From contig JAEUSF010000001.1 in NCBI GenBank assembly GCA_016788665.1, forward strand, positions 1 through 46,221: a DNA stretch of 46,221 bases, in the 5' to 3' direction. The notes beneath the pieces were generated by a model. That model searched no databases. It was not told the DNA's origin and was given only the letters and a program-made list of their open reading frames with translations. Position 1 is the stretch's first letter. Every line of letters starts with the position of its first letter. The DNA is from Candidatus Doudnabacteria bacterium. Its GTDB lineage: Bacteria > Patescibacteriota > Doudnabacteria > UBA920. The translations under genes were made by a program, and so were the position numbers. Below, piece by piece: positions 7,721-46,221 of this stretch.

Positions 7721-7755
7721 TAAGAATTTAGAATTTTGAATTATGAATTAAGAAG
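7721..7755. repeat. heptamer array (minus-strand sense AATTCWW x4) abutting the rpoC start codon
   Basis: Plus strand: TAAGAAT TTAGAAT TTTGAAT TATGAAT TAAGAAG. Minus strand: CCTTCTT AATTCAT AATTCAA AATTCTA AATTCTT ATAT ATG. Confidence 0.85.
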
Positions 7756-11704: not shown

Positions 11705-12640
11705 ATGGAAAAAATTATAGACGTAGAAAACCTAAAGAAAACGTTTACTAATGGGCGTCAAAAAACGCAAGCAATTAAAGGAATGTCTTTTTTTGTAAAT
11801 AAAGGAGAAATTTTTGGGCTGCTGGGGCCGAATGGGGCCGGAAAAACTACGACTTTGGAAATAATAGAGGGTCTTAAAAAACAAACAGAAGGCACCGTAA
11901 AAGTTTTGGGCTTTGACAACCTCACACAAGCCGAAGAAATCAAAAAACATATCGGTGTCCAACTACAATCCAGTGATTACCTCCCCTATCTAACCTTGGT
12001 TGAATTACTAAATTTATTCGCTTCTTTATACAAAGGCAGTGCAAAACCTAACGATCACATAACTTTACTAAAATCTGTTAATTTAGAAAAAAAGCAAAAT
12101 GAACAAGTAAAAAACCTCTCTGGTGGACAAAAGCAAAGGTTCACCATAGCAACCTCGTTAGTACATAACCCTAAAGTTCTATTTTTAGATGAACCAACCA
12201 CCGGCTTAGACCCAAGCGCCAGAAGAGATTTATGGAAACTAATTAAATACCTAAACGAACAAGGCATTACTATAGTTTTAACCACCCACTACATGGAAGA
12301 GGCGGAATATTTATGCTCTCGAGTTGCCATTATGGATCAAGGCCAAATTTTAGAAACAGACGAACCAAAAAACCTTATAGACAAAATCAGCAAAACCACC
12401 CAGATATCCTTTTTAACTAATAGCCCCTTAAACGAAAATATTTTTAAAAACTTACCCGAAATCGAAAAAATTTACACACACCTGCCAAAAATAATTATAG
12501 AAATAAAATCCTTAGATCATATAAGTACCGTTATAGATATATTAAAAAATAACAAAGTGGAATTTTCAGGCTTTACAGTTAAAACCGCAAGCCTGGAAGA
12601 TGTGTACCTAGACCTAACGGGAAAAGAATATCAACAATAA
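11705..12640 (+). CDS. ABC transporter ATP-binding protein (ABC-2 exporter type)
   Basis: Walker A GPNGAGKTT, signature LSGGQKQR and Walker B LFLDEPTTGLD. The ATG at 11705 is preferred over the TTG at 11687. TATAAT at 11690-11695 would make the mRNA nearly leaderless. Confidence 0.93.
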   Translation: MEKIIDVENLKKTFTNGRQKTQAIKGMSFFVNKGEIFGLLGPNGAGKTTTLEIIEGLKKQTEGTVKVLGFDNLTQAEEIKKHIGVQLQSSDYLPYLTLVELLNLFASLYKGSAKPNDHITLLKSVNLEKKQNEQVKNLSGGQKQRFTIATSLVHNPKVLFLDEPTTGLDPSARRDLWKLIKYLNEQGITIVLTTHYMEEAEYLCSRVAIMDQGQILETDEPKNLIDKISKTTQISFLTNSPLNENIFKNLPEIEKIYTHLPKIIIEIKSLDHISTVIDILKNNKVEFSGFTVKTASLEDVYLDLTGKEYQQ

Positions 12641-12661
12641 ATTCCAAATTTCAAATATCAA
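12641..12661. repeat. heptamer array ATTCCAA ATTTCAA ATATCAA
   Basis: Period-7 repeats immediately after the stop codon of the ABC ATPase gene. They contain a 17-mer (12646-12662) that is identical to the reverse complement of 28479-28495 inside polA. Confidence 0.8.
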
Positions 12662-12716
12662 AACCTGTCTTTGCTAATAAAATTTAATTTTTAAAGCGCT
12701 TATTATTTATTTGAAA

Positions 12717-13497: not shown

Positions 13498-13531
13498 AAA
13501 AACACCCTGTTATTTATTCAGGGTGTTTTTA
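13498..13531. terminator. bidirectional terminator
   Basis: Stem AACACCCTG/CAGGGTGTT flanked by an A-run and a T-run. It overlaps the 3' end of the convergent tsaB-like ORF. Confidence 0.65.
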
Positions 13532-13812
13532 ACTTTTATAGGTACATTCCATGCCAAGCCTAGGCCTTGTGCGACAGCCGTACCTATCCTCAAGCCCGTA
13601 AAGGAACCGCCTCCCTTATAAACTATTATGTTTCTGATTTCAGATTCGGGATTCTTGATTTTTGAACTTTTTAAAAATTCTTCCAATTTTTCCAGAATGT
13701 ACCCGCTCTCGTGAGGCTTAACAAAAAATTCTTGCTGAGCATGCGTTTGTTTTTTTTCTACTAAACCAAGTTTTACTTTTCCATACTCAGCTGTATTTAT
13801 ATGTAAATCCAT
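13510..13812 (-). CDS. tsaB: short TsaB/YeaZ-like protein (N-terminal domain only, 100 aa)
   Basis: The motif YKGGGSFTGLRIGTAVAQGLGLAWNVP matches the GPGSFTGLRIG block of TsaB. Confidence 0.7.
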   Translation of the reverse strand: MDLHINTAEYGKVKLGLVEKKQTHAQQEFFVKPHESGYILEKLEEFLKSSKIKNPESEIRNIIVYKGGGSFTGLRIGTAVAQGLGLAWNVPIKVKNTLNK

Positions 13813-19899: not shown

Positions 19900-19931
19900 G
19901 TTACCAATAAATAAATTCTTTAATCAAACGT

Positions 19932-19960
19932 ATTTTAGCAGTGCGTGGAGATATTGACAA
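19932..19960 (-). promoter_or_regulatory. candidate ruvA promoter TTGTCA-17-TAAAAT
   Basis: Reverse complement of TGACAA at 19955-19960 and of ATTTTA at 19932-19937. Confidence 0.45.
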
Positions 19961-19980
19961 AAACCCTCGTATAATATAGA

Positions 19981-20392
19981 ATGTTGGAACTTTGGAAACC
20001 TGCACGAGAGACAACGTTCAAAAGACGAGCGCAGGTTTCCATGAAGGGCGGGATCGTCCTCCGCTTTCCCGCCCTTCTGCAAAGATTTCAGTTCGGGAGC
20101 CGCGACTGGTCCTTTATCCCTTCGAGGACCATAAACCGCGGCCTCCCAGCCGAAGAAGTCCTCGAGCCCAGCTCGGACACTTCGGCACCCAGAGCCGCTT
20201 CGGCGACAACATGCACATTTCCCTTTCGCTCTCTTTAGGGGAACAGCACGTCGCCGAAGCGGCCACAACTTAAACGAGGAATTCATCTTTCAAAAAAAAG
20301 ATCTGTTAGCGTCCCTTCATCCAGATGAATCCCTCTCCTTGCGGAGGTCGGACATGGCTTAAAACCAATTCCGACCTCCGCTTCTTTCGTTA
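19981..20392. ncRNA. G+C-rich, helix-dense non-coding element (unclassified structured RNA or uvrB leader)
   Basis: Contains at least 9 perfect or near-perfect inverted repeats of 6-14 bp. The only ORFs are mutually overlapping and not protein-like. There is a sharp G+C jump relative to the flanks. The terminal hairpin 20341-20352/20370-20381 is followed by TTCTTTCGTT on the plus strand. Confidence 0.6.
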
Positions 20393-20419
20393 ATAAGTCA
20401 ATGTTATAAAATGTTAGCC

Positions 20420-23802: not shown

Positions 23803-24810
23803 TTACTTAATTAGATTCACAACCAATCCCACCATAACTTCTTTTTCTTTTGGATCACTCTCAGCAATAAGCAAAGCCAGTGCAGTTAAAGTATTATCAT
23901 TTATTTTTCTCTCACCCCTTTTGTCGTACAAAAAATTATTTTCCACCAAATAAAGCAAAAAAGTTAAGGCGCCAATCCGCTTGTTTCCGTCAACAAAAGG
24001 ATGGTCCTTAATTAAAAAATATAAAAGATGCGCGGCTTTTTCTTCCACAGAAGGATACAGGTCTTTCCCCGTAAAAGTTTGGTTTATATTGCCCAAAACT
24101 GCCTTAAATTTGTTCCCCACTTCCTGACCAAATAAACTCCCCGCTTCCTTTTGACTTACAAGCCTCTGCTTAAATTTAGAAATAGAGCCGAGCAAAGTTT
24201 CGTAATTCAAAGCCGGGCCTGCTCTTTTACTTAAACCTTCCAAACTTAGCTCGCCTTTGTCATAAGCATTTAGCAAAAACCACGTATCGGCATAGTCAGA
24301 AATTATGCTAAGCAGCTCTTTTTCATAACCCTCTAGTCGTTTTGAAGCAACAGCTTTTTGAATAAGCTTATGAGCACTCTCTAGCTCTTTTAGCTTTACT
24401 TTTAAGTTTTTTAAATCCTTCAGGCGTTCTTCATTTATAGCAAAGCCTTTTAATAAGTAATCCTTAAGTCTTTTAGTAGCCCAAATACGAAACTGGGTTG
24501 CCCGAGCAGAGTTTACCCTATACCCAATAGAGATAACCATATCCAAGTTATAGTATTCTACTCTTCTCTTCACGTCTCTAAGCCCCTCTTTTTGAACTAT
24601 TTCCAAAATGGAAACAGTTGATTTTTGGCTTAGTTCAGCGGACTCATAGATATTTTTTACGTGCTTTGAAATTGCTGCTTTTTGAACACTAAAAAGCGCA
24701 GCTATCTGATTTTGAGTCATCCAAACTGTTTCTCCGTCAATTTGTAAAGACAGCTCGGGTCCACTAACAGCCTTATATATTATAATTTCACCTTTTTTTG
24801 TTTCTTCCAT
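23803..24810 (-). CDS. RhuM-like N-terminal domain fused to a Fic/Doc domain
   Basis: The N-terminal block QNQIAALFSVQKAAISKHVKNIY...ISIGYRVNSARATQFRIWATK resembles RhuM-family virulence proteins. The C-terminal Fic/Doc motif is HPFVDGNKRIGA. Confidence 0.85.
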   Translation of the reverse strand: MEETKKGEIIIYKAVSGPELSLQIDGETVWMTQNQIAALFSVQKAAISKHVKNIYESAELSQKSTVSILEIVQKEGLRDVKRRVEYYNLDMVISIGYRVNSARATQFRIWATKRLKDYLLKGFAINEERLKDLKNLKVKLKELESAHKLIQKAVASKRLEGYEKELLSIISDYADTWFLLNAYDKGELSLEGLSKRAGPALNYETLLGSISKFKQRLVSQKEAGSLFGQEVGNKFKAVLGNINQTFTGKDLYPSVEEKAAHLLYFLIKDHPFVDGNKRIGALTFLLYLVENNFLYDKRGERKINDNTLTALALLIAESDPKEKEVMVGLVVNLIK

Positions 24811-24883: not shown

Positions 24884-25219
24884 TTATTTTGCAGATAATT
24901 TAGCCAAAATCTTCTCTTTCAATTCTTCCATAGTGGAAATATGATTAAGCTCGTAAGCGTCCATAATCCTTTGCAAACCATGCGGATGTTTTATAAAAAC
25001 TGCCGGCAGCTCAGTTCCAGCGGTTTCAGGAAACTCTAAGAAAAAATCTGGCCGATGATAAAAATCTATATCATAAGGCAAATCTTGGACTAAATCTTTA
25101 TGCTCACTTTCAAGCTCAGCCAAAGAAGGATTTTTTTGGTATCTATGCAAACGTTGCGCAGCAAGCTCAAAAACCGTAGCGTTACCATTGTAAACAAAAA
25201 TTAATTTAGGGTTTTCCAT
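24884..25219 (-). CDS. hypothetical 111-aa protein, translationally coupled to the upstream HD-domain gene
   Basis: ORF with a 2-nt gap to the HD gene stop codon. No motif was recognised. Confidence 0.55.
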   Translation of the reverse strand: MENPKLIFVYNGNATVFELAAQRLHRYQKNPSLAELESEHKDLVQDLPYDIDFYHRPDFFLEFPETAGTELPAVFIKHPHGLQRIMDAYELNHISTMEELKEKILAKLSAK

Positions 25220-25221
25220 AT

Positions 25222-25887
25222 TTAAAATTTATATTTTTTTAATTCTATCACAACCGGAGCCAAACTCTCTTCTGTAATATACTCGGGCAGAGTTTTAGTG
25301 GTTGTAAAAATTTGTTTTTCAATTTCGCGCAGCAATTGCTCAAACTTAAGCCGGTCATTTTCTGTCCCACCAACAGCCAATCTCTTGGCTTCATATCTGG
25401 ACCGCAAGTCGGCAAACCTTTCCTCCAAACTCGCCACCCCTCTGGGTGTTACCCGCATATCTGCATAAGCACATATTTGTTTACCCAAATCACCCGAATT
25501 TAAATTACTTTCTGCTTGGTTAAAGCCCACGCAATCAACTAATTCTTCAATCCTTTTTTCTACACCCAACTCCTTTACAATTTGGATAGTCGCGCTATGC
25601 TCATCTTTTCCGTAAATACTTATGTACTCTGTCTTAACTTTTTGCCAATAGTCTAAATCGATACCAGTATTTACAAGCGACACAGTTTGAGCAAAGTCGA
25701 ATTTTATAATATTTCCCATATCATGGAGCAAACACGCGAGCACTACATCCGCTTTTTGCTGGCCTGAAAACACCCCCAATTCAACAAGTTTGCCAGAAAT
25801 TATACTAGCCACTGCCGCCACCCTAAACTGATGATCGGCCAATTGCGGCATAATTTTGTATTTTTTATATACTTCTAAAATTTCCAT
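25222..25887 (-). CDS. HD-domain phosphohydrolase family protein
   Basis: H...RVA at the N-terminus and the LLHDMGN motif. Confidence 0.75.
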   Translation of the reverse strand: MEILEVYKKYKIMPQLADHQFRVAAVASIISGKLVELGVFSGQQKADVVLACLLHDMGNIIKFDFAQTVSLVNTGIDLDYWQKVKTEYISIYGKDEHSATIQIVKELGVEKRIEELVDCVGFNQAESNLNSGDLGKQICAYADMRVTPRGVASLEERFADLRSRYEAKRLAVGGTENDRLKFEQLLREIEKQIFTTTKTLPEYITEESLAPVVIELKKYKF

Positions 25888-25923: not shown

Positions 25924-25948
25924 AAAAACCCGCCCTTAAGGCGGGTTT
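25924..25948 (-). terminator. rho-independent terminator after the 90-aa ORF
   Basis: Stem ACCCGCC/GGCGGGT, followed by a U-run in the minus-strand sense (AAACCCGCCTTAAGGGCGGGTTTTTGC). Confidence 0.65.
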
Positions 25949-26002: not shown

Positions 26003-26275
26003 TCAAGCGAATCGTAATTCCAGTCCACGCTGCTCTTTTATTTTTTCTAGTTGATATCTAAAAGGTTTGTACATAAAAAGCTGGAATTTACCCAAGTATT
26101 TTTTTAAATCCGCCCTTACATCATCCGAGCTTTTAATATGTTTAACTTCTATTTTTTTGTTAAACCCCATATTGCCTAGCACAAAAACCCCTGGGGTTTT
26201 TGGCGTGACTAACTTTTCTATGTTGGAAGGATTAAGAATATAAGGCTTAAACCAACCTTTATTTTGCTTTTGCAT
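26003..26275 (-). CDS. hypothetical 90-aa protein (weak GIY-YIG-like N-terminal pattern)
   Basis: Strong SD GAGAGGGGGTGTGGA before the ATG, with its own promoter-like TTGACA...TATACT and its own terminator. The pattern PGVFVLG...VKHIKSSDDVRADLKKYL is only loosely GIY-YIG-like. Confidence 0.5.
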   Translation of the reverse strand: MQKQNKGWFKPYILNPSNIEKLVTPKTPGVFVLGNMGFNKKIEVKHIKSSDDVRADLKKYLGKFQLFMYKPFRYQLEKIKEQRGLELRFA

Positions 26276-26414: not shown

Positions 26415-29267
26415 TTAAACCGAAACAGGCTCCATATTACCCCAGCTATCCCCCACTTTGGCTTCCACTTTTATGGGAATAGAAAGACTAAGAGCCTCTT
26501 CCATAAAAACTTTCAACATCTTAGCATAATGCATAACCATGTCTTCTTTCACCTCAAACACAAGTTCATCATGCACCTGTAGCAGCATTTTAATATCTAA
26601 TTCACTGTTTTTCTTACTCTCTAACTCTCTATGTATGTTAATCATTGCAACTTTTATAACATCCGCCGCTAAAGACTGAATAGGAAAATTAATTGCGGCT
26701 CTTTCCGCTGCCGCACGAATAAAGAACTGCGAAGAACGTATTTCCGGAAATTTTCTCATGCGACCGAGTTCGTTTTTTACAAACGCTGTCTGGTTTACCT
26801 GGAGTTTAACATTTTCCATATACTCCTCTACTTGAGGGTAAGCTGCAAAATATTTTTCAATAAACCTCTTAGCCTCCGCTCTGTTAACTTCACCTATTCT
26901 AGAAGACAAGCCAAAGCTGGACACCCCGTACAAAATACCAAAATTTATAGTTTTTGCATCTCTACGCATATCTTTAGTCACTTTGTCAGCCGGCACATTA
27001 AAAATTTCCACAGCGGTTTTGGAATGAATATCTTCGTCTTTTTGAAAAACTTCCAGCATTTTTTTGTCCTTAGCCAAATGAGCAACTATACGGAGCTCTA
27101 TCTGTGAATAATCCAAAGACAAGAGCTTAAAACCTTTTTCTGCAACAAAAGCCTTCCTCACCTGGCTACCCAAACCATCCCCTTTGACCGGAATGTTTTG
27201 CAAGTTAGGGTCTGTGGAAGAAAGTCGCCCGGTTGCTGCGATGGTTTGGTTATAACTAGTATGAAGTCGCCCGGTCTTTTTAGAAACTTGGCCAGGCAAA
27301 GTAGTTAAGTAAGTGCTATAAAGCTTTGTCACTTCCCTATATTCCAAAATTTTTGGCACTATTTCATGTTGCCCAAGCATTTTTTCCAAATTACCTGCGG
27401 CAGTGGAAATACCAGTTTTGGTTTTTCGGTTTTCTATAGGCTCAAGCCCTAACTTCTCAAACAATATTTTCTTTAATTGCAACGGCGAATTTATATTAAA
27501 TTCTTCTCCAGCTAGTTTATGAATTTTTTTCTCCAGGTCTTTTATATCTATTTCAGCTTCGCTTGCTAATTTGTTTAAAAATTTAGTATCAAGCTTTATA
27601 CCATTTAGCTCCATATCTCTTAAAACGGAAACAAGAGGCATCTCAATATCGTAAAAAACTTTTTCCAAACCCTGTTTTTTTAGTTCCGGCTCAAAAATAC
27701 CTTTTAGCCTCAACGTCATATCTACATCTTCGCAGCAATACCAAGAAACCTTTTCAGGCGCGACCTTATCCATGGTAATTTGGTTTTTACCCTTGCCAAT
27801 AAGTTCTTCTATAGGCTGCATTTGGTAGCCTAATTCGTTAAAAGCCAAAGCATCCAAGCCATGCTGGCGGGTACCAGCATTTAGCAAATAGGAAGCCAAC
27901 ATGGTGTCAAAAGTAGCACGTAGCTGGTAACTGGTAGCGAGTAGGACCTGAAGGTCGTATTTAATATTGTGCCCAACTAGTTTTACTTTTTCAGAAGTTA
28001 AAATATTTCTAAGCTCTTCAGAAGCTATAAAAATCTGACTTGGCAAATAAAAAGCCTTACCCGCTGCCACACAAATTCCAACTCCAACTAATTTTGCCTC
28101 GGTCACATTTAGACTTGTGGTTTCTGTGTCTATACAAATTTCTTTCGCACCAGAAATTTCTTTAAGCATTTTGTGAAGCTTCTCTTCTGTGTCCACCAGT
28201 TCATAGTCCTGCTTACCAATCTCCCCAGAAAACTCTCTTACCCGCTCTCCTACTTCCTGACTCATACTTCCTGACTCCTCCCCTTTGGGTAACTTCGCCA
28301 ACAAACTCTTAAACTCTAACCTCTGAAAAGTTTTAACAGTCTGCTGTAAATTATCACCTTCTAAAACATAAGGCTTAATGTCTTCGTGTATCCCCGGAAC
28401 ATCGCATACAATCTGCGAAAGCTCGTAAGACAAACGGGCTTCTTTTTCCTGTTCAACCAGCAGACTTATAATTCTTGGTTTGATATTTGAAATTTTATAT
28501 TTATTTGGTATTTGAAACCCGCCTTGACCGACAGTTCGGGCAGGTTTAGGATTTGTAATTTCTGTTCCTATTTCCTTAAGCTCCTTGTGTAAGGTTTGAT
28601 ACAAATTATCTATGCTTCCAAATTCTTTTATAATATTAGCCGCGGTTTTCTCCCCTATTCCCTTAACGCCTGGAATATTGTCAGAAGGGTCACCCCTTAA
28701 AGCCTTATAGTCCACCATTTGGCTGGGTAAAAGGCCGTAGCGTTCACGCACGGCGCGTGCGTCGTAAACCACGGTGTCTGTTAAACCTTTTCTCGGTGTG
28801 TAAACTTTTACCTTGCTATTTACCAGCTGCAAAGTGTCCATGTCTCCGGTCAATATAAATATTTCTGCGTTGTCATGCGAGCTGTCATGAAGCTGTTTAG
28901 AAAGCGTGCCTAAAACATCGTCCGCCTCATACCCCTGTTTTTCGTAAATTGGTACATTCATGCCACGTAAAACTTCTTTTATAACCGGGATTTGGTCATA
29001 AAGCTCCTGAGCTGCTTTAACACGAGTACCTTTATACTCTTTATACTTTTCATGTCTAAACGTAGGCCCGGCTAAGTCAAAAGTCGCAGCTACATGCGTG
29101 GCTTTTATATCCTTCATGGCCTTTAAAAATATGGTCAAAAAACCAAACACGGCCCCGGTCGGTTTTCCGTCTTTGGTAGTAAGTCCAGGCAGTGCGTGGA
29201 ACGCTCTGTGCACCAAGGCATTGCCGTCTATAAGCAAATATCTGATTTTGGCCTTTTGTTCCGTCAT
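26415..29267 (-). CDS. polA: DNA polymerase I (5'-nuclease, 3'-5' exonuclease and polymerase domains)
   Basis: 5'-nuclease N-terminus LLIDGNALVHRAFHA, Exo I motif ICIDTETTSL, and polymerase motifs DYSQIELR, RRDAKTINFGILYG and QVHDELVFE. Confidence 0.97.
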   Translation of the reverse strand: MTEQKAKIRYLLIDGNALVHRAFHALPGLTTKDGKPTGAVFGFLTIFLKAMKDIKATHVAATFDLAGPTFRHEKYKEYKGTRVKAAQELYDQIPVIKEVLRGMNVPIYEKQGYEADDVLGTLSKQLHDSSHDNAEIFILTGDMDTLQLVNSKVKVYTPRKGLTDTVVYDARAVRERYGLLPSQMVDYKALRGDPSDNIPGVKGIGEKTAANIIKEFGSIDNLYQTLHKELKEIGTEITNPKPARTVGQGGFQIPNKYKISNIKPRIISLLVEQEKEARLSYELSQIVCDVPGIHEDIKPYVLEGDNLQQTVKTFQRLEFKSLLAKLPKGEESGSMSQEVGERVREFSGEIGKQDYELVDTEEKLHKMLKEISGAKEICIDTETTSLNVTEAKLVGVGICVAAGKAFYLPSQIFIASEELRNILTSEKVKLVGHNIKYDLQVLLATSYQLRATFDTMLASYLLNAGTRQHGLDALAFNELGYQMQPIEELIGKGKNQITMDKVAPEKVSWYCCEDVDMTLRLKGIFEPELKKQGLEKVFYDIEMPLVSVLRDMELNGIKLDTKFLNKLASEAEIDIKDLEKKIHKLAGEEFNINSPLQLKKILFEKLGLEPIENRKTKTGISTAAGNLEKMLGQHEIVPKILEYREVTKLYSTYLTTLPGQVSKKTGRLHTSYNQTIAATGRLSSTDPNLQNIPVKGDGLGSQVRKAFVAEKGFKLLSLDYSQIELRIVAHLAKDKKMLEVFQKDEDIHSKTAVEIFNVPADKVTKDMRRDAKTINFGILYGVSSFGLSSRIGEVNRAEAKRFIEKYFAAYPQVEEYMENVKLQVNQTAFVKNELGRMRKFPEIRSSQFFIRAAAERAAINFPIQSLAADVIKVAMINIHRELESKKNSELDIKMLLQVHDELVFEVKEDMVMHYAKMLKVFMEEALSLSIPIKVEAKVGDSWGNMEPVSV
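27913..27947. repeat. heptamer array GTAGCAC GTAGCTG GTAACTG GTAGCGA GTAGGAC inside polA
   Basis: Five period-7 units, translated on the minus strand as VLLATSYQLRATF. Confidence 0.8.
28251..28278. repeat. 14-bp direct repeat x2 inside polA
   Basis: TACTTCCTGACTC occurs at 28251-28263 and 28265-28277. It is translated as EESGSMSQEVG. Confidence 0.85.
28476..28562 (-). mobile_element. in-frame repeat-derived insertion in polA, with an internal hairpin
   Basis: Encodes EITNPKPARTVGQGGFQIPNKYKISNIKP in the linker after the 5'-nuclease domain. It shares GAAATTAC..AAATCC with the valS array and a 17-mer with 12646-12662. The hairpin 28515-28523/28539-28547 has a G.U pair in the mRNA sense. Confidence 0.55.
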
Positions 29268-29320
29268 GTAAAATTTCTATTTAAACTTTATAAGGGCATT
29301 ATACAAGAATATAAGACAAA

Positions 29321-29349
29321 TAAAAAAGGGCACAACTTTACGTTGTGCC
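29321..29349 (-). terminator. rho-independent terminator of the small ORF
   Basis: Stem GGCACAAC/GUUGUGCC followed by CUUUUUUAUUU in the minus-strand sense. Confidence 0.75.
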
Positions 29350-29361
29350 ATGACCGTTGGA

Positions 29362-29490
29362 TTAGTGGGTCAAGTGCGGCCCCGGCGGAAAGGGCTCGAA
29401 GTCGTGCTCCAAGCCTGGGCATCCGCACCCAGGCCCGCACGCCAGGGCCAACATGGCCCCTAAAAAAAACACCGTCAACATTTTTTTCAT
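29362..29490 (-). CDS. 42-aa secreted or lipoprotein-like Cys/Gly/Pro-rich peptide (not in the ORF track)
   Basis: My translation is MKKMLTVFFLGAMLALACGPGCGCPGLEHDFEPFPPGPHLTH. The SD AAAGGTGAT sits 5 nt before the ATG and a strong terminator lies just downstream. The ORF is G+C-rich. Confidence 0.6.
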   Translation of the reverse strand: MKKMLTVFFLGAMLALACGPGCGCPGLEHDFEPFPPGPHLTH

Positions 29491-29637: not shown

Positions 29638-30213
29638 TCAAGCATTCCACTCATGGTCCCGCATAGCCTTTAGCATATGTCCGGCAAATGTTTTTACGGA
29701 TAAATCGGACTTTGTAAGTTCCTCTAGAATACTTTCAAACTGCCGCCATTTTAAGTATGGCACGGTTTCCAAAGTGGTTACAAAAATTTCTTTCTTGCTT
29801 TCCTGCATGGCCTTAACCAAAACCTTAAAACACTCCGGATTAAAATCTTCAAAAGCAAAAACATAACCCAGCTTTTTTATGGCTTGAATTTTTTCTGTTT
29901 CGTTTTCACTTTGGGCAAATTTTAGAATATCTTCCTTATTTTCCAAAGGTAAAATATTTTGTAAATATTCTAGAGCATCACTCATAATCACCGCCCTAAC
30001 TTCCAAATAGTTTACACCAATTCTTTCGTCTACCACGTAAAGCAAATACAAGTCCAAAGGTTTATGCTGCCAATGGATTTGATACGGCTCACCCGAACTT
30101 GCTAAAACTTCCTTTGTTTCTACCCAATCCTCTTTTTGGGCAATTTGTTTTAAATCTTCCAAGCTAAAATCTTCTGTAAAAACCAAATTTTTTCTTGTGT
30201 AAATATTTCGCAT
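29638..30213 (-). CDS. hypothetical cytoplasmic protein
   Basis: ORF of 191 aa counted from the ATG at 30213 (the ORF track starts at the TTG at 30219). AT-rich, native-like composition. No motif was recognised. Confidence 0.6.
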   Translation of the reverse strand: MRNIYTRKNLVFTEDFSLEDLKQIAQKEDWVETKEVLASSGEPYQIHWQHKPLDLYLLYVVDERIGVNYLEVRAVIMSDALEYLQNILPLENKEDILKFAQSENETEKIQAIKKLGYVFAFEDFNPECFKVLVKAMQESKKEIFVTTLETVPYLKWRQFESILEELTKSDLSVKTFAGHMLKAMRDHEWNA

Positions 30214-30267
30214 ACCCAAATTCTAACGCAGAGGGCCGTCCTCTGTAAATGGTTAGGGATTACTGAG

Positions 30268-30356: not shown

Positions 30357-30411
30357 CATGTAATCCTCGCAGTCAGAGTTTACGAGCCTGCTGAGGAAGA
30401 AAAGTTGGACC

Positions 30412-31260
30412 TTATGGAAAAACGGATGAGGAGGACCCGTTTCCAATTATCCCACGCCTCAAGGTAAACGTCTCCTTCAGACCCCCGAAGTTTACCACAA
30501 TGTCATACGCCGCCGCTGTAGGGTTGCCCAAGGGGAAAGGAAAATAAATCCTGCTGAGAGTACCGTTTCCAGCCTGAACCTTCAACACAGCTGGAATAAA
30601 AGCGTAAAAGAAGTTAGGCTGCCCAAACGCCACCATAGTGGAGTCGTCGGGAAACACCCCTTCCAAAACAACCGTTTGTGTGTTTCCGCTTTCAACAACC
30701 TTTGCGCTGTCGAGGTGATAGGGTGTACGCCCCCTGTATCCCGCCGTTACAACATAGTAACGGCAGAATATTTGTTGTAAAATCTGGCCGCCGGGCGAGC
30801 GAGCTATCACAACGTCAAATAGCACGCTATGGCCTTGCTGCTGCTCGGGCGACACCCGCCCGGTATACACAGGAATGGCTGGGAGCGTGGGAAGTTTTTC
30901 AAAGTGCCCGAAAAGCCCACCCTCAACACTAAACCAGGCTTCGCTCATAAGCGAACCGTCTAGGTTGAAATGCCGGCGACGTCCGTAAACGTCCACCGAC
31001 CCTTCCGGAATTCTGCCCGGGGCTAAATCCAAAAATAACCTCACCTCCTCACCCGGCTGCGCGAACTCCCCAACACTACTTCGAAGGAGCGCAAAATTTA
31101 ACGGTACAACACTAAGCCCTCGGCCGTTTTTCGCGGCCTCAGGCCGTTCGCATTCCTGCCCGCAGTTCTTGTAGAACTGCTCAGCAGTCATACGATCCTG
31201 CCCAAACATCGCGCTGGCCAAGGCCAGCGAAAAAAGAACAAGCGTGATAACGAGGCGCAT
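30412..31260 (-). CDS. secreted hypothetical protein, G+C-rich
   Basis: SD AGGGGGGTG 6-7 nt before the ATG. Signal peptide MRLVITLVLFSLALASAMFGQD. 282 aa and rich in beta-strand-type sequence. Confidence 0.7.
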   Translation of the reverse strand: MRLVITLVLFSLALASAMFGQDRMTAEQFYKNCGQECERPEAAKNGRGLSVVPLNFALLRSSVGEFAQPGEEVRLFLDLAPGRIPEGSVDVYGRRRHFNLDGSLMSEAWFSVEGGLFGHFEKLPTLPAIPVYTGRVSPEQQQGHSVLFDVVIARSPGGQILQQIFCRYYVVTAGYRGRTPYHLDSAKVVESGNTQTVVLEGVFPDDSTMVAFGQPNFFYAFIPAVLKVQAGNGTLSRIYFPFPLGNPTAAAYDIVVNFGGLKETFTLRRGIIGNGSSSSVFP

Positions 31261-31295
31261 TTTAGCACCCCCCTAAGCAAAGGTTCCCAAACGAC

Positions 31296-31384
31296 TTCTT
31301 TGGGTCAAGCTAGGCATTAAAACATGTTACTTGTTACGTGTTACATGTCACGTGTCACGCTGACACCCAACTCGACCCAAAGAA
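31296..31384 (-). promoter_or_regulatory. long-range 11-bp stem in the 5' UTR, enclosing a heptamer array
   Basis: TTCTTTGGGTC at 31296-31306 pairs perfectly with GACCCAAAGAA at 31374-31384. Confidence 0.5.
31324..31365. repeat. heptamer array ATGTTAC TTGTTAC GTGTTAC ATGTCAC GTGTCAC GCTGACA
   Basis: Five to six period-7 units. In the minus-strand sense they read GTGACAC GTGACAT GTAACAC GTAACAA GTAACAT. Confidence 0.9.
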
Positions 31385-41898: not shown

Positions 41899-42981
41899 TT
41901 ACTCAGCTTCTAACGCAGGTGTCAGTGTTACATGTTGGGCAGGCATCTCAAGCGGATGCGTGGTGGTAATAAAAGTTTGAAATTTATTTTGTAAAAATTT
42001 TAAAAGAAATGTACGGCGGGTCTCGTCTAATTCAGACAAGACATCGTCTAAAAGCAAAACTGGTTTTTCTTCACCTTGGCTCAAATACTCAAGCTCCAAA
42101 ATTTTTAGCGCCAAAACCTGGCTTCTAAGCTCTCCCCTGGAAGAAAAAGGGCTAAGGTATAAACCATCACTCTGTAATGAAAAATCGTCCTTATGGGGCC
42201 CTACAAGCGAAACAGCGGCAGCTTTTTCTCTGGGCGCGTACTTTTCTAACTTTTCACGGTACGCACTTTCTATTTCCTCTAACGTATCCCCCGGTAAAGA
42301 ACTATATACCACCTCCACGGGACGATGAAATCCTGAAATTGCAGAGTAGACCTCCGAAATACGGTCGTTTAAATATTCACAAAACTTTCTTCTTTCCATA
42401 ATAATACCGCTACCAATTTTAACCAACTGACTGTTCCAGGAACTAAGCTCCTCTGAATTCGTCGACAATCCTGACTTCAAATTTTGCAAAAGTTTGTTTT
42501 TATAAAAAATTGCTTTTTTATACTCCCCAAGCTCTTCCATGTGACGCGGGGCTTTTTGTGACAAAACCATATTTAGATATTTACGCCTGCCTTCGGGCTG
42601 TTTAGTAAACATATCTACATCTGTGGGTTCAAATATCACAACCTTCAGAAAACCCTGGGCTTCGGTCCTTCTTTTCTTTACACCATTCAATAAAAAATTA
42701 GCATAAATCTTATCACGCTTTTCTAAAAATATTTTAAGGTTGTGGGTTTCGGAACCTTTTTCTATAACAAACTCAATCTCGGAAGCTTGGGTGTCTTTTA
42801 AAAATATAAATTCGTTATCATCCCTAAAAGACTTAAAAAGCGAAGCAAAGTATACAGACTCTAAAAGATTTGTTTTACCTACAGCATTAGGACCAGATAA
42901 TACAACAGTATTTCCGTTTATTGCCAAATCTAGGTCTGGATAATTTCTAAAGTTTTTTAATTTTATATTCGTAATCTTCAT
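41899..42981 (-). CDS. recF: DNA replication and repair protein RecF
   Basis: N-terminal LKNFRNY, Walker A GPNAVGKTNLLE, and the signature/Walker B region LLLDDVLSELD. Confidence 0.95.
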   Translation of the reverse strand: MKITNIKLKNFRNYPDLDLAINGNTVVLSGPNAVGKTNLLESVYFASLFKSFRDDNEFIFLKDTQASEIEFVIEKGSETHNLKIFLEKRDKIYANFLLNGVKKRRTEAQGFLKVVIFEPTDVDMFTKQPEGRRKYLNMVLSQKAPRHMEELGEYKKAIFYKNKLLQNLKSGLSTNSEELSSWNSQLVKIGSGIIMERRKFCEYLNDRISEVYSAISGFHRPVEVVYSSLPGDTLEEIESAYREKLEKYAPREKAAAVSLVGPHKDDFSLQSDGLYLSPFSSRGELRSQVLALKILELEYLSQGEEKPVLLLDDVLSELDETRRTFLLKFLQNKFQTFITTTHPLEMPAQHVTLTPALEAE

Positions 42982-43085
42982 ATATTCACAGATGCACGGA
43001 TTTCACAAATATCACGGATTCTAAACACCACAGCAGGGTATTTTATTGTATCTATATTATCCGGGCTATCTGTATATCCATAAAC
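42982..43085. repeat. repeat-module-rich recF-dnaN spacer
   Basis: CACAGAT GCACGGAT ... ATCACGGAT lies at the left end. ATCTGTATATCCATAAAC (43068-43085) at the right end resembles the right terminal repeat at 31954-31987. Confidence 0.6.
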
Positions 43086-44183
43086 TTAATTTTTTATTGG
43101 CATAACTAAATAAATATAATTAACATCATCTTCTGGCACAATAAGAGCAGGCGAATTATCATCAATTATTTTTAGCTGTATTTTTTCGCTCTGTATGGAA
43201 TTTAAACAATCCAGAACGTAATGAAAGTTTAAAAGCAAGCTTCCTGCCTCACCTTTAATTTCAGCCGGTATCTCCACTTTGCTTTTACCAACCTCTGAAG
43301 ATTCTGATTCTAATGAAATATTACCATTCTCCGTGTTCATAAACAGCGCCACGCTGTTTGTACTATGGCTAAATATTCCACCCGCCTTTAGGGCACCAAT
43401 AAGTTTTTTGCGGTCTACTAAGGCATGCGCCTTAAACTCTGTTGGTATTATTTCCTTATATTCAGGATACTGCCCATCAACTAACCGGCTAATTATTTGA
43501 GTAGAATTAATAGTAAAACCTATTTGGCTTGTGCTTAAATTTATTTCCACATCTTCTGTTTGTCCACCAATGATTCTACAAATTTCTTGGGCAGTTTTTT
43601 GGGGTAAAATAACGTCTTGGGTAAAGCCTGGTTTTTGAGAAACCATCATCTTTTTCTCTGCAAGTCTATATCTGTCGGTAGCAACAAGCTTTATACCTTC
43701 CCCCACAGATACCAAAACACCGGCTATTTCTGGCTGGGTTTGGTTTGTCGAAGCTGCGAACATAACCTCCTCCAAAGCCTTTTTAAATTCCTGACCAGGA
43801 ATAACAATATTATTATTTTTTTCGATTTGAGGAATTAAAGGAAAATCTTCTGCCGGCAATGTTTTTATGTGTGTATGGTAATTATCCGCTTCGATTTGTA
43901 TTTCTCCATTTTTTGTTTCCAAACTTATATTTGTATTTGGCAGATTATTCACCAACTCAGTAAAAGTTTTAGAAAAAACTGTTACTTCGCCTTCTTCTTC
44001 AATTTTGCACCTTATTTGTGTAGTTATAGCAACCTCTAGGTTGGTAGAAGATATTTTCAGAAGACCATTCTCAGTTTTTAACAGAAAGTTATTTAGTATT
44101 GGTAATGTGTTGTTTGGAGATATTATTCTGCCTACTGTGGTTAACCCCCATTTTAGATTTTCTTGAGTGCAGATTATTTTCAT
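43086..44183 (-). CDS. dnaN: DNA polymerase III subunit beta (sliding clamp)
   Basis: 365 aa with the typical N-terminus MKIICTQENL...L, located between dnaA and recF. Confidence 0.95.
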   Translation of the reverse strand: MKIICTQENLKWGLTTVGRIISPNNTLPILNNFLLKTENGLLKISSTNLEVAITTQIRCKIEEEGEVTVFSKTFTELVNNLPNTNISLETKNGEIQIEADNYHTHIKTLPAEDFPLIPQIEKNNNIVIPGQEFKKALEEVMFAASTNQTQPEIAGVLVSVGEGIKLVATDRYRLAEKKMMVSQKPGFTQDVILPQKTAQEICRIIGGQTEDVEINLSTSQIGFTINSTQIISRLVDGQYPEYKEIIPTEFKAHALVDRKKLIGALKAGGIFSHSTNSVALFMNTENGNISLESESSEVGKSKVEIPAEIKGEAGSLLLNFHYVLDCLNSIQSEKIQLKIIDDNSPALIVPEDDVNYIYLVMPIKN

Positions 44184-44396
44184 ATATATAATATTTATAA
44201 ATAAAACTAATAGTAATAATAAGCCTTGTGGATATGGGGATAAAACCTTATCTTCTTTGTTTACAGTATTAACGCAAGCAATTAAAACTTTTTTCTTTGT
44301 GGAAATGTGTGTGGAAAAAAGTTGATAACTTAACTAGGGGTTTTGTTGTAAGAATCCGTAGGGGTTTTATCTGGTAGTTTTCCACTACTTATATAC
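44184..44396. other. candidate oriC segment (DnaA-box cluster plus an AT-rich stretch)
   Basis: DnaA-box-like 9-mers: TGTGGATAT 44227-44235, TGTGGAAAT 44298-44306, TGTGGAAAA 44310-44318 and TTTTCCACT 44378-44386. The stretch 44184-44222 is almost pure A+T. Confidence 0.6.
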
Positions 44397-45746
44397 TTAC
44401 ATAAACAACTTATCCATAACTAAATTAATTTCTTGTTTGAATGCATCTTTTTCAGTAATCATCTGATTAATTTTTTCTACCGCATGCATTACAGTGGTAT
44501 GGTCCCTACCGCCAAAAAAGTCGCCAATCGAAGGAAAAGAACTATCTAATTCTTTTCGGATAATATACATAGCTATCTGCCTTGGTTTTACAAACTCTTT
44601 CTTTCTAGACTGCTTTATTAGGTCGTCCATCCCAATATTGTAAAACTCTGCTACAACTTCTGCTATTTTTCGTGGAGATGTTATTCTTTTCTTGCTTCCA
44701 ACTATACTGCCCAAAATACTCTTTGCTTGCTCGAGAACAAGGCCCCTATTTTGCATTTGTTGATAAACCGAAAGTTTATTTAAGGCTCCCTCTAATTCTC
44801 GCACGTTATTCTGAATATTCTCAGCAATATAAAATAAAATTTGTTCGTCTAGGCTGGTGCCACGTTTTTCCATTTTCGTTCGTAGTATGGCCATTCTCGT
44901 TTCTAGATCGGGCACTTGTATGTCGGCAATCATGCCCCACTCGAACCTGGAAACTAAACGTTGTTCTATGGCAGGGATTTCTTTCGGAGGCCGGTCAGAG
45001 GTTATAATTATTTGTTTGCCCTTATCCCGTAAGTCGTTAAAGGTGTGAAAAAATTCCTCTTGGGTGCCCTCCTTCCCTGCTATAAATTGAATATCGTCTA
45101 TAAGTAAAGCGTCTAAATTTCTATAAAACTTTTTAAATTCTTCTATTCTTTTTTCTTTTAAGGCATCAATGTAATCATTAGTGAATTTTTCACTCGAGGC
45201 ATAGAAGATTTTTGCTTTCGAATTGTTTTTTATAATGCTGTGCCCAACTGCGTGCATAAGGTGTGTTTTTCCCAAGCCCACTCCCCCATAAATAAACAGT
45301 GGGTTATATTGTGAGCCAGGATTTTTCGCTACAGCCCAGCTGGCAGCATGTGCAAGTTCGCTGTTTTTGCCAACCACGAAAGTCTCAAATGTGTATTTTT
45401 GGTTTAAACTCGAAACGTTTTGGGGTGTTTCTTGGTTTGAAGTGGTAGAAATTTCGCTTAGCTTAACTGTTTTTCCTGAAATTGGGCTGGTCACAGAGTT
45501 TATGGAGCCAACATGGTAGCGAATTTCTTTGATTTCTGGAGAAATGGTCTTCAGCGCTTTTAACATTTCAGGGTGATATTTATTTTGTATCCAATTTTTG
45601 TGGAATAAATCAGGAACATTAACAACTATAAAATTGTTTTCTTTTTCGATAATGCTGGTATTTTTGAACCAAGTGTTAAAATTGGCTTTACTAAGCGATA
45701 TTTCTAAATGTCCCAGTATTGCTTGCCAGAGCTGTTGATTATTCAT
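44397..45746 (-). CDS. dnaA: chromosomal replication initiator protein DnaA
   Basis: Walker A GGVGLGKTHLMHA, Walker B LLIDDIQF, and the domain IV block DHTTVMHA. Confidence 0.97.
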   Translation of the reverse strand: MNNQQLWQAILGHLEISLSKANFNTWFKNTSIIEKENNFIVVNVPDLFHKNWIQNKYHPEMLKALKTISPEIKEIRYHVGSINSVTSPISGKTVKLSEISTTSNQETPQNVSSLNQKYTFETFVVGKNSELAHAASWAVAKNPGSQYNPLFIYGGVGLGKTHLMHAVGHSIIKNNSKAKIFYASSEKFTNDYIDALKEKRIEEFKKFYRNLDALLIDDIQFIAGKEGTQEEFFHTFNDLRDKGKQIIITSDRPPKEIPAIEQRLVSRFEWGMIADIQVPDLETRMAILRTKMEKRGTSLDEQILFYIAENIQNNVRELEGALNKLSVYQQMQNRGLVLEQAKSILGSIVGSKKRITSPRKIAEVVAEFYNIGMDDLIKQSRKKEFVKPRQIAMYIIRKELDSSFPSIGDFFGGRDHTTVMHAVEKINQMITEKDAFKQEINLVMDKLFM

Positions 45747-46065
45747 GTTTTGTTGTATTTTTGTGTAAATTAGCTACTTTTGAATTTTACCAGTGAGTTA
45801 TCAACATGTAAAATTTTCTATATCCAGCTCAAGTAAGCCATAAATAAAAGTTCGTGTTAATAAGGTGTGGAAAACGTGTGTTTTCAGCTTTTCGTGCTTT
45901 GGGTCTTATTATCGAAGTGTAGTCTTTTGTCACAAATTTATTGTTAAAAATCTAAAGTGGTCAGATATATAGGTAAAAATGTAAATATTGACTAAAATGC
46001 GTATTTTAAGTAGAATTATATAGATTTTAACTAAAAATTATTAGATTGGTTCCAATAAAAAAACA
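45747..46065. other. dnaA-rpmH intergenic region with DnaA boxes and the rpmH promoter
   Basis: TTATCAACA at 45798-45806 and TGTGGAAAA at 45866-45874. The promoter is TTGACT-17-TAGAAT at 45988-46016. Confidence 0.55.
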
Positions 46066-46200
46066 ATGAAAAGGACATATCAGCCAAAAAAGCTCCGCAG
46101 GGTAAAAAGACATGGTTTTAGAGGCAAAATGAAAACCAATGCAGGAAGAAATGTTTTAAAGAGTCGTCGTTTAAAAGGACGAAAGCGTTTAGCTCTATAA
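46066..46200 (+). CDS. rpmH: 50S ribosomal protein L34
   Basis: My translation is [44 protein letters not shown] (44 aa). It has the classic L34 N-terminus and the position divergent from dnaA. Confidence 0.93.
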
Positions 46201-46221
46201 AACCCCTAAATTTAATGTTTA

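Follow-up and report, generated by a model that had tools for sequence, protein, structure and literature searches.

How a DNA polymerase I came to carry about 26 additional amino acids (aa) in its 5'-nuclease region is the question raised by the polA gene of a Candidatus Doudnabacteria genome. The gene occupies positions 26415-29267 on the minus strand of a stretch of 46,221 nucleotides (contig JAEUSF010000001.1, hereafter the window), as an open reading frame (ORF) of 950 aa. A first-pass annotation had taken the extra DNA for a single palindrome-containing element of about 87 nt, of the kind described as Rickettsia palindromic elements (RPE), inserted in frame. This is not borne out, as the array part of the segment exists without the palindrome in another genome, no second copy of the palindromic core was found in the window or in three public collections, and the size is below that of an RPE. 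The polA segment is two nested things, a tandem array of heptamers and a separate 27-nt palindrome, and not a single 87-nt element. The explanation favoured here, with a probability of roughly 0.6, is that the insert represents two-layer, non-functional repeat DNA that became established where the 5'-nuclease domain of Pol I has a permissive loop.

Homologs of the gene product contain the Pfam domains 5_3_exonuc_N, 5_3_exonuc, DNA_pol_A_exo1 and DNA_pol_A, and the PDB entries that match its N-terminal part are M. smegmatis Pol1 and Taq Pol I. The best matches of PolA and of the valyl-tRNA synthetase (ValRS, encoded by valS) of the window belong to Patescibacteria, Parcubacteria or Paceibacterota, in agreement with the earlier label of a genome like those of the Candidate Phyla Radiation (CPR). 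Loci and proteins used for comparison are denoted by numbers prefixed with L and P, respectively. Alignment with 23 orthologs revealed a surplus of 26 aa (I233-K258, IGTEITNPKPARTVGQGGFQIPNKYK; about 28494-28571, minus strand) in the window PolA as compared to its closest ortholog P0001 (77-80% identity). Taq Pol I has no counterpart to query residues ~229-258, the window PolA being ~30 aa longer there, and both comparisons support the extra length of ~26 aa proposed in the first-pass annotation. The insert is lacking in P0001 and, among the other orthologs examined, is present in one only. The peptide encoded by the extra segment is KEIGTEITNPKPARTVGQGGFQIPNKYKISNIKPRII, and the reading frame of polA is intact across the insert, without a stop codon. 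The anchor-to-anchor spacing over this region has a median of 83 residues (43 orthologs with both anchor motifs, from the top 120 matches); it is 86 in P0001 and ~112 in the window, the latter calculated as 86 plus the 26-aa insert. The sole other clearly longer PolA of this spacing survey is P0005, with 101 residues. That the ISNIKPR end of the insert is repeat-derived merely by a coincidence of alignment was considered and rejected; P0001 has ISKIKPR from unrelated codons, and the right-hand boundary of the insert can therefore be placed only to within a few residues.

Written in the orientation of the mRNA, the sequence of the segment is GGAACA GAAATTAC AAATCCT AAA CCTGCCCGAACTGTCGGTCAAGGCGGG TTTC AAATACC AAATAAA TAT AAAATTTC AAATATC AAACC AAGA. 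The array (28479-28562, minus strand) consists of degenerate heptamers in two sub-arrays, with the core nested inside it. The left heptamer units, GAAATTAC AAATCCT (28548-28562, minus strand), equal the valS array of the window minus three units and match 2805-2839. The right tract (28479-28517, minus strand) reads TTTC AAATACC AAATAAA TAT AAAATTTC AAATATC AAA, and Tandem Repeats Finder (TRF) detects a period of 7 at 28479-28502. Between them lies the GC-rich mini-palindrome CCTGCCCGAACTGTCGGTCAAGGCGGG (28518-28544, minus strand), placed inside a unit AAA|TTTC; it is 27 nt long, i.e. nine codons (PARTVGQGG), which explains why the reading frame is kept. Deletion of these 27 nt in silico leaves five in-phase units, AAATTAC AAATCCT AAATTTC AAATACC AAATAAA, and the second short sub-array, AAATTTC AAATATC AAACC, lies 4 nt out of phase with the first. 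The GC content of the core is 0.70 as compared to 0.13 and 0.22 in its flanks, and a GC-composition filter was passed by two loci only in 46 kb, of which the polA core is the sole palindromic one. The other GC island (42526-42552, in recF) was examined as a similar element and rejected, being ordinary coding sequence without a palindrome. The complete hairpin (28515-28547, minus strand) measures 33 nt; its arms AAACCUGCC/GGCGGGUUU form a stem of 9 bp around a 15-nt loop, and the AAA/UUU at the base of this stem derive from the split heptamer unit, which lengthens the palindrome arms to 9 bp.

The separation of array and core is independently supported by P0005, a PolA from a Patescibacteria metagenome-assembled genome (MAG; GCA_028870105.1) that is 62% identical to that of the window. 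At exactly the same polA site its gene carries (CAATTTC)4 followed by CAAACAATTTTAAAATTTCTAATTTCAAAAC, without a GC-rich block. When the two loci were aligned with MAFFT, a single 27-column gap over the core was the only large gap, and the arrays without the core (57 nt in the window vs 60 nt in P0005) are 75% identical, as compared to 59-65% for the flanking coding DNA. In terms of PolA clades, P0005 goes with P0002, P0003 and P0006 (69-71% identity), and the window with P0001 (80%). An array at this site is found in the window and P0005 only, i.e. in two different clades, and at least two gains or several losses are therefore needed to explain its presence at the polA loop. We infer that the core was added later than the array, in the lineage of the window.

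The array is a member of a family dispersed over the window, where at least four heptamer arrays are present, in the valS loop, the rpoC leader, an ABC-transporter spacer and polA. The valS array (2806-2837, plus strand) is (AAATTAC) x 4.6 with 100% matches in TRF, lies in frame and encodes EITNYKLQITNPEG. The rpoC leader array (7721-7754, minus strand; TRF period 7, 4.9 copies) reads TAATTCA TAATTCA AAATTCT AAATTCT and ends 5 nt before the ATG. The spacer array (12639-12662, plus strand; 3.4 copies by TRF), AAATTCC AAATTTC AAATATC AAA, begins at the stop codon of the ATPase gene, ahead of the permease gene. Runs of at least three AAANNNC units number 2 in the window, against 0.1 expected. The 17-mer at 28479-28495 is identical to 12646-12662, as had been noticed before, and the match extends to 27 nt at 89% (inverted-repeat pair I4); with up to 3 mismatches the 17-mer has 9 matches vs 1.25 expected, a number reached in 0 of 100 shuffles. 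The reported likeness of GAAATTACAAATCC (28549-28562, minus strand) to the ends of the valS array is also found, with 1-2 mismatches, although it is weak alone (3 matches vs 0.79 expected). The extra DNA of polA is thus related to sequences elsewhere in the window, as the first-pass annotation had held, but the likeness is that of a heptamer family and not of the ends of an element.

Heptamer arrays were also met in the relatives L001, L017-L020 and L024 (in L018 and L020 incidentally). In L020 and L024, (AAATTCT) x 3.9 spans the ybeY stop codon, and L018 has AAATCAT repeats at a gene end. The in-gene arrays lie in sense orientation; as read from the sequences, AAATTAC, AAATTTC and AAGCTAC give a stop codon only on the opposite strand, and the sense orientation is stop-free in every frame for three of the four heptamer units checked. 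This sense-only, stop-free orientation fits the survival of in-gene arrays under selection. An array of AAATTCT ends 2 nt before the ftsA ATG in L020 (1803-1829), and another 5 nt before the rpoC ATG in the window. By analogy with the TAACTGA repeats of Beggiatoaceae, such placement hints that start-codon-proximal AAATTCT arrays may bear on translation initiation.

How such arrays change with time can be followed in valS, where the loop sits between the conserved motifs NKLWNIARF..N and T.ADK.IL. In four valS orthologs of 67-75% identity, the 16-aa loop is made up of about four heptamers, with a different unit in each: AAATTAC in the window (2806-2837), (AAATTTC)4 in L017 (1005-1037), (CAATTCC)3 + CAATTTC in L018 (5299-5326) and (AAGCTAC)4 in L019 (784-815). 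Further valS orthologs have heptamer-type or hairpin-type peptides in the same loop. The valS loop is thus a long-lived hot spot, in which the length of the array is kept and all units change together. With at least three head-to-tail units, presence at several unlinked loci above chance and rapid change between relatives, the array component displays every tested feature of heptanucleotide repeat arrays.

A separate observation concerns the valS loop of L023 (~779-840), which is occupied by an in-frame double hairpin of ~60 nt, GTCATTCCGGCCTCCGAGCCGGAATCCAG TGAG TGGATCCTGAAACAAGTTCAGGATGAC, encoding VIPASEPESSEWILKQVQDDK. Similar peptides occur in P0183, and P0128 has MDPRLREDD; this looks like a widespread repeat family.

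Filled and empty sites for a palindrome are provided by the gene of YbeY, an rRNA-maturation RNase. In Candidatus Azambacteria (L004 3837-3857; L011 1113-1133), GGGAAAA is followed by the in-frame 21-nt palindrome CCTGCCCGTCCGGAAGGCGGG and then by TTTGATTTGCAG, giving the peptide KPARPEGGF. The site of L020 (~1500) is empty and reads GGGAAAAGTTGATTTGCAG, the sequence being 73% identical with nearly identical flanks. The site is filled by a variant of the L011 hairpin plus 9 nt in L022 (364-393), by CCTGCCTGCTGGCAGGCAGG after GGAAAA in L021 (10232-10251) and by CTCCGTAACTCATCATGATGAGTTACGGAG, an unrelated perfect 30-nt palindrome, in L024 (ybeY 530-1096). The orthologous YbeY codon position is therefore empty in one genome and occupied in others, where at least two unrelated palindromes occur, 21-30 nt in length and always divisible by three; this shows that Patescibacteria gain or lose small palindromes in frame. 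In L011, CCTGCCCGTCCGGAAGGCGGG is flanked by AAAA and TTT, the empty site reads AAAAGTT, and no duplicated target is visible; such sites suggest that small palindromes prefer the junction of an A-run and a T-run. The L011 hairpin, CCTGCC...GGCGGG, has the same arms as the polA hairpin.

Further copies of the polA core were sought with one stem-anchored gapped pattern, AAACCTGCCCGN{5,25}AAGGCGGGTTT, which fixes 22 stem bases, in GTDB genomes (596 Gb), JGI metagenomes and IMG/VR. None of the three contains the genome from which the window comes, and since the scans need exact matches, copies of the core diverged by more than ~10% would be missed. The pattern matched at 8 places in the GTDB genomes, at 6 in the JGI metagenomes and at 0 in IMG/VR, none of them with the loop of the window. 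The matches are of three kinds, namely terminators, GTAGGGGCGGGTTT/AAACCCGCCCCTAC-type palindromes of cyanobacteria and other phyla, and the Azambacteria YbeY hairpin, of which only the last is informative. In the 46-kb window itself, neither the core (at up to 3 mismatches) nor its loop 15-mer has a second copy, and the loop 15-mer has no match in the other loci examined. A phmmer search for relatives of the 37-aa insert peptide among 1.84 billion representative proteins returned one spurious match, a leucine-rich-repeat protein, and a look-up of exact protein matches gave no record for the window PolA.

Among the loci retrieved, tandem palindromes of the form GTAG(A/G)GGC(A/G)GGTTT ... AAACC(C/T)GCCC(C/G)TAC are found in L003 (7752-7788), L010 (41-77), L006, L007 and L012. 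The sources are Scytonema, Rhizonema, a proteobacterium, a Desulfobacteraceae MAG and a metagenome contig; these palindromes look like a widespread, dispersed family without relation to the polA core.

The 9-bp hairpin described in the first-pass annotation is indeed present, its arms AAACCUGCC (28539-28547) and GGCGGGUUU (28515-28523) pairing as stated. Its sole non-Watson-Crick pair, as read from the sequence, is a U.G pair in the mRNA, to which C.A corresponds on the plus strand. The stem alone is statistically unremarkable, as the window has 43 hairpins with at least 8 pairs; folding of the 101-nt region likewise gave no significant result (z = -1.4 as RNA, z = -1.2 as DNA). A scan of both strands for U-run terminators called none at 28515-28547; the sequence after the stem in the mRNA, UUUCAAAU, has no U run and sets the hairpin apart from an intrinsic terminator. 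Rfam, at the gathering threshold, gave only one tRNA (in L013) for the window and four loci and nothing at the hairpin, and ARAGORN detected no tRNA in the window. The core also contains a promoter-like match on the plus strand (28524-28552), but such matches are no more frequent than expected by chance (7 found vs 8.4 expected).

A terminator-type hairpin, AAACCCGCC CTTAA GGCGGGTTT, occurs in an intergenic position at 25926-25948 (minus strand), followed by a T run on the minus strand. It lies downstream of the minus-strand ORF 26003-26275, 2.6 kb from the polA hairpin, and its stem equals the 9-bp stem of the polA hairpin except at the single G.U position. Being outside the insert, this hairpin is a possible source or a chance relative of the polA core, and the likeness of the 9-mers could be due to chance.

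The effect of the insert on the enzyme was assessed from an AlphaFold2 model covering PolA residues 1-402 (mean predicted local distance difference test, pLDDT, 86). In structural comparison it matches FEN-type 5' nucleases, the target-normalised TM-scores being 0.76-0.85. Residues 238-248, between the helices 219-236 and 258-272, have a pLDDT below 50, and the remainder of the 5'-nuclease domain is confidently modelled. The insert is accordingly placed where the first-pass annotation had expected a loop to be found, in the low-pLDDT segment between two helices of the 5'-nuclease domain. As modelled, it appears to be a largely low-confidence loop on an otherwise well-formed domain. In-frame, fold-compatible insertion into a protein gene, a property of RPE, is thus seen in the polA insert, as judged by the intact ORF and the model.

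For the order of events we infer the following sequence. A permissive loop would have gained an AAATTNC-type heptamer array by replication slippage and/or ectopic conversion between arrays, the same processes by which heptamer arrays may turn over. In the lineage of the window, the 27-nt GC-rich mini-palindrome (CCTGCC...GGCGGG) would then have entered one unit at AAA|TTTC. It could have been a very small non-autonomous hairpin moved in trans, of the type of repetitive extragenic palindromes (REP) or small dispersed repeats (SDR); alternatively, a genomic hairpin of terminator type may have been copied by template switching or illegitimate recombination. Selection would remove the variants that break the frame or bear stop codons, and in-gene arrays would survive only in sense orientation and at frame-keeping lengths. 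The presumed outcome is a largely low-confidence loop of ~26 aa which the enzyme tolerates.

Several points weigh against this account. The core is at most a candidate for a repeated, mobile element; a single copy is known, with none else in the window, GTDB genomes, JGI metagenomes or IMG/VR, and no transposase-like gene was found among the 36 ORFs of the window compared with Pfam. The YbeY hairpin is no proof of a family for the polA core because the search pattern had fixed 22 stem bases, and the resemblance between the two is thus partly built in. Instead of recurrent gain, the array of the polA site could reflect an ancestral state that was lost several times, and the neutrality of the loop is an assumption. 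Simple one-unit slippage does not explain the change of all units of an array in an essential gene that keeps its frame; a step of one unit would frameshift valS, so that array conversion or three-unit steps would presumably have to be involved.

That the whole ~87-nt segment is a single RPE-kind mobile element with many genomic copies would account for its in-frame position in the disordered loop of an essential gene, for the hairpin it contains and for the resemblance of both its ends to other sequences of the window; relatives bear other in-frame hairpins as well, such as the double hairpin in the valS of L023. The shared parts are, however, heptamers, and no hairpin accompanies them in valS, in the rpoC leader or in the ABC-transporter spacer; in P0005 the same polA site holds the array but not the core, and no second copy of the core came from the scans of the window, GTDB, JGI metagenomes or IMG/VR. 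As the segment is also smaller than the RPE range of about 100-150 bp and displays no visible terminal inverted repeats or target duplication, such an origin is unlikely. An alternative in which the repeat features are incidental, and the segment is a lineage-specific functional extension of Pol I (e.g. a partner-binding or DNA-contacting loop), draws on the kept frame free of stop codons, on the better modelled C-terminal part of the insert (block 251-260, mean pLDDT 86) and on a similar peptide at the same place in P0005, FQFPNNFKISNFK vs FQIPNKYKISNIK in the window. This likeness of peptides is explained by the related heptamer DNA that encodes both. The segment is missing from the closest ortholog (80% identity) as well as from close relatives of P0005, the hairpin-encoded part has a pLDDT below 50, and in valS the same kind of peptide changes freely between orthologs along with the unit sequence; a functional extension is improbable on these grounds.

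Retention of the hairpin for a role at the nucleic-acid level in polA, such as a pause in transcription or translation, an RNase site or a protein-binding site, is very unlikely. The lone imperfect pair, which is U.G in the mRNA but C.A on the opposite strand, does suggest the mRNA strand, and the L011 YbeY hairpin has the same arms and the same sense-strand U.G; the latter was, however, imposed by the search pattern. Arrays directly before the rpoC and L020 ftsA starts hint at action on mRNA, as proposed for TAACTGA (PMC4679880). The hairpin itself is known from a single sequence and thus offers no covariation, its region folds no better than shuffles (z = -1.4), it matches no Rfam family and no U-run terminator on either strand, and the closest ortholog does without it. 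It is scarcely credible that the segment is an artefact of assembly or binning, i.e. a chimeric join or a collapsed repeat in polA. Metagenome assemblers can err at short repeats and hairpins, but here the frame is exactly kept and both flanks continue the same polA ortholog alignment; moreover, the independent MAG P0005 has an equivalent array at the same codon position, and comparable in-frame valS arrays are present in independent assemblies.

A bolder extension of the two-layer reading, doubtful at present, is that a Patescibacteria clade possesses a genome-specific heptamer 'dialect' that would be actively rewritten, by master-copy conversion or templated writing, and read by a co-evolving nucleic-acid-binding factor. 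If true, it would explain why the valS array keeps its length while all its units change between lineages, and why the same units lie directly before the rpoC and ftsA start codons. Very small mobile palindromes (21-30 nt) would then use the arrays as landing pads, and no smaller mobile element would be known outside Nostocaceae.

Other features of the window lie apart from these repeats. Between the ORF 29638-30219 and polA, a GC-rich stretch of ~110 nt (within 29320-29480, minus strand; -75 kcal/mol, z = -4.3 vs shuffles) is followed by a U-run hairpin (29349-29329); it has no Rfam match even at E <=1 and may be a small RNA. The region 19900-20410, between ruvA and uvrB, is likewise GC-rich and contains an 11-bp perfect stem (20043-20077) and a 12-bp stem (20341-20381), with chance-level Rfam matches only. 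Rather than a gene, this region is probably a structured non-coding RNA, and its 120-aa ORF (19924-20286, minus strand) has an implausible Arg/Cys/Gly-rich translation without a Pfam match. A GC island at 30400-31300 (0.49-0.55 vs 0.39 for the window), which may be horizontally acquired, holds a 282-aa ORF (30412-31260, minus strand) with a hydrophobic, signal-peptide-like N-terminus and no Pfam match. At the end of the window, recF, dnaN and dnaA stand in a row on the minus strand (41899-46221), and the AT-rich region upstream of dnaA, in which a 21-nt unit is repeated in tandem (46003-46047), probably represents the origin of replication. The 100-aa ORF at 13510-13812 (minus strand) matches only the first ~85 of 264 positions of the TsaD/TsaB profile, as a truncated or split tsaB-like gene would; a similar gene of L018 is apparently split in two (1139-1693 and 1805-2326). 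The ORF 23803-24810 (minus strand) joins a RhuM-family N-terminal region to a Fic/DOC domain and adjoins three small ORFs without Pfam matches (24884-25887, 26003-26275), which may together form a toxin-like or mobile cassette beside polA.

Taken alone, the repeat DNA tolerated in polA is ordinary; what is unexpected is the existence of recurrent hot spots, of heptamers that change in concert and of palindrome sites both filled and empty. No obvious mechanism is at hand for the concerted replacement of heptamer units at an orthologous site of an essential gene. If the two-layer reading is true, ultra-small, 'streamlined' CPR genomes still gather simple-sequence and palindromic DNA in core genes of replication, translation and RNA processing, and do so repeatedly at the same hot spots, a small number of permissive loops. 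These form natural filled/empty pairs in which the spread of tiny palindromes and heptamer arrays can be studied, and they account for some of the odd low-complexity peptides in CPR proteins. For annotation and phylogeny they call for caution, as insert-encoded peptides, ITNYKLQITN or KPAR..GGF for instance, stem from repeat DNA and are no sign of protein homology. The tolerance of repeat and palindromic DNA in frame in a CPR housekeeping gene, as envisaged in the first-pass annotation, fits polA as well as valS and YbeY of relatives, although not in the form of an RPE-type element. Full-text searches of a limited literature collection found no relevant description of heptanucleotide tandem repeats in Patescibacteria or of in-frame palindromic repeats in CPR.

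REP are extragenic, present in tens to hundreds of copies and linked to the REP-associated tyrosine transposase (RAYT). The polA hairpin resembles REP, REPIN and the SPRITE-type, terminator-like mobile hairpins in being a short GC-rich imperfect palindrome with an A/T-flanked stem, and it shares this stem with the genuine terminator-type hairpin at 25926-25948. It differs from REP/REPIN in being intragenic and single-copy in the window, without a transposase among the 36 window ORFs compared with Pfam and without a U run in the mRNA sense. A miniature inverted-repeat transposable element (MITE) is not indicated either, as the core lies between AAA and TTT with no target duplication or terminal inverted repeats visible. 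The polA core thus falls outside the definitions of REP/RAYT, MITE and intrinsic terminators. RPE measure about 100-150 bp and comprise about ten families with dozens of copies and a conserved peptide each (Ogata et al. 2000, as reviewed in PMC10969869). The likeness to RPE consists in palindrome-containing repeat DNA placed in frame in unrelated housekeeping genes, in fold-compatible loops and in a small, host-dependent genome. In contrast to RPE, the palindrome here is 27 nt long, single-copy as far as seen and embedded in a separate simple-sequence array, and the whole insert of 78-87 nt is composite and does not correspond to an RPE in size or in a conserved peptide. The resemblance is therefore one of outcome, i.e. 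in-frame and fold-compatible insertion, and not of the element.

The closest likeness in design is to the SDR of Nostocaceae, in that a 27-nt palindrome lies within a heptamer array. According to Elhai et al. 2008, SDR reportedly measure 21-27 nt, some of them form hairpins, they are often nested in tandem heptamers, and they were judged mobile from filled and empty sites; they are also said to be defined by many nearly identical copies per genome. The 21-nt relative with its filled/empty pair in YbeY adds to this likeness. The polA array of P0005, for its part, is 'empty'. Unlike SDR, the polA core has one known copy, and its host belongs to Patescibacteria, outside the reported range; the account of SDR in PMC5861425 refers to Nostocaceae only.

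For the array itself, known heptanucleotide repeats offer the nearest parallel. Short tandemly repeated repetitive (STRR) sequences of cyanobacteria include (TTTTGAA)n in Nostoc PCC 7120 (PMC4679880; bioRxiv 10.1101/2022.06.06.494920), TAACTGA direct repeats occur in Beggiatoaceae, Cyanobacteria and Bacteroidetes, many of them near start codons or gene ends (PMC4679880), and heptamers are the commonest long simple-sequence repeats (LSSR) of prokaryotes according to Mrazek 2007 as summarised in PMC4679880. The arrays described here share with LSSR, STRR and TAACTGA repeats the head-to-tail 7-nt units, the 3-5 copies per array and the many loci per genome. Their position just upstream of start codons or at gene ends (rpoC in the window, ftsA in L020) is that of TAACTGA repeats, and the placement before start codons also parallels the (TTTTGAA)n of Nostoc. 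Arrays occasionally lie inside ORFs in a stop-free orientation in both cases. In contrast to TAACTGA and STRR, the units are of AAATTNC type and differ between related genomes, the host belongs to Patescibacteria (CPR), and the arrays lie inside the catalytic-core genes valS and polA at orthologous loops, with length kept and unit sequence replaced; in the Beggiatoa genome studied, in-ORF repeats are mostly at protein ends, unlike those of valS and polA. Repeat DNA of known kinds, heptamer arrays along with very small palindromes, is here found inside the core genes of a CPR lineage.

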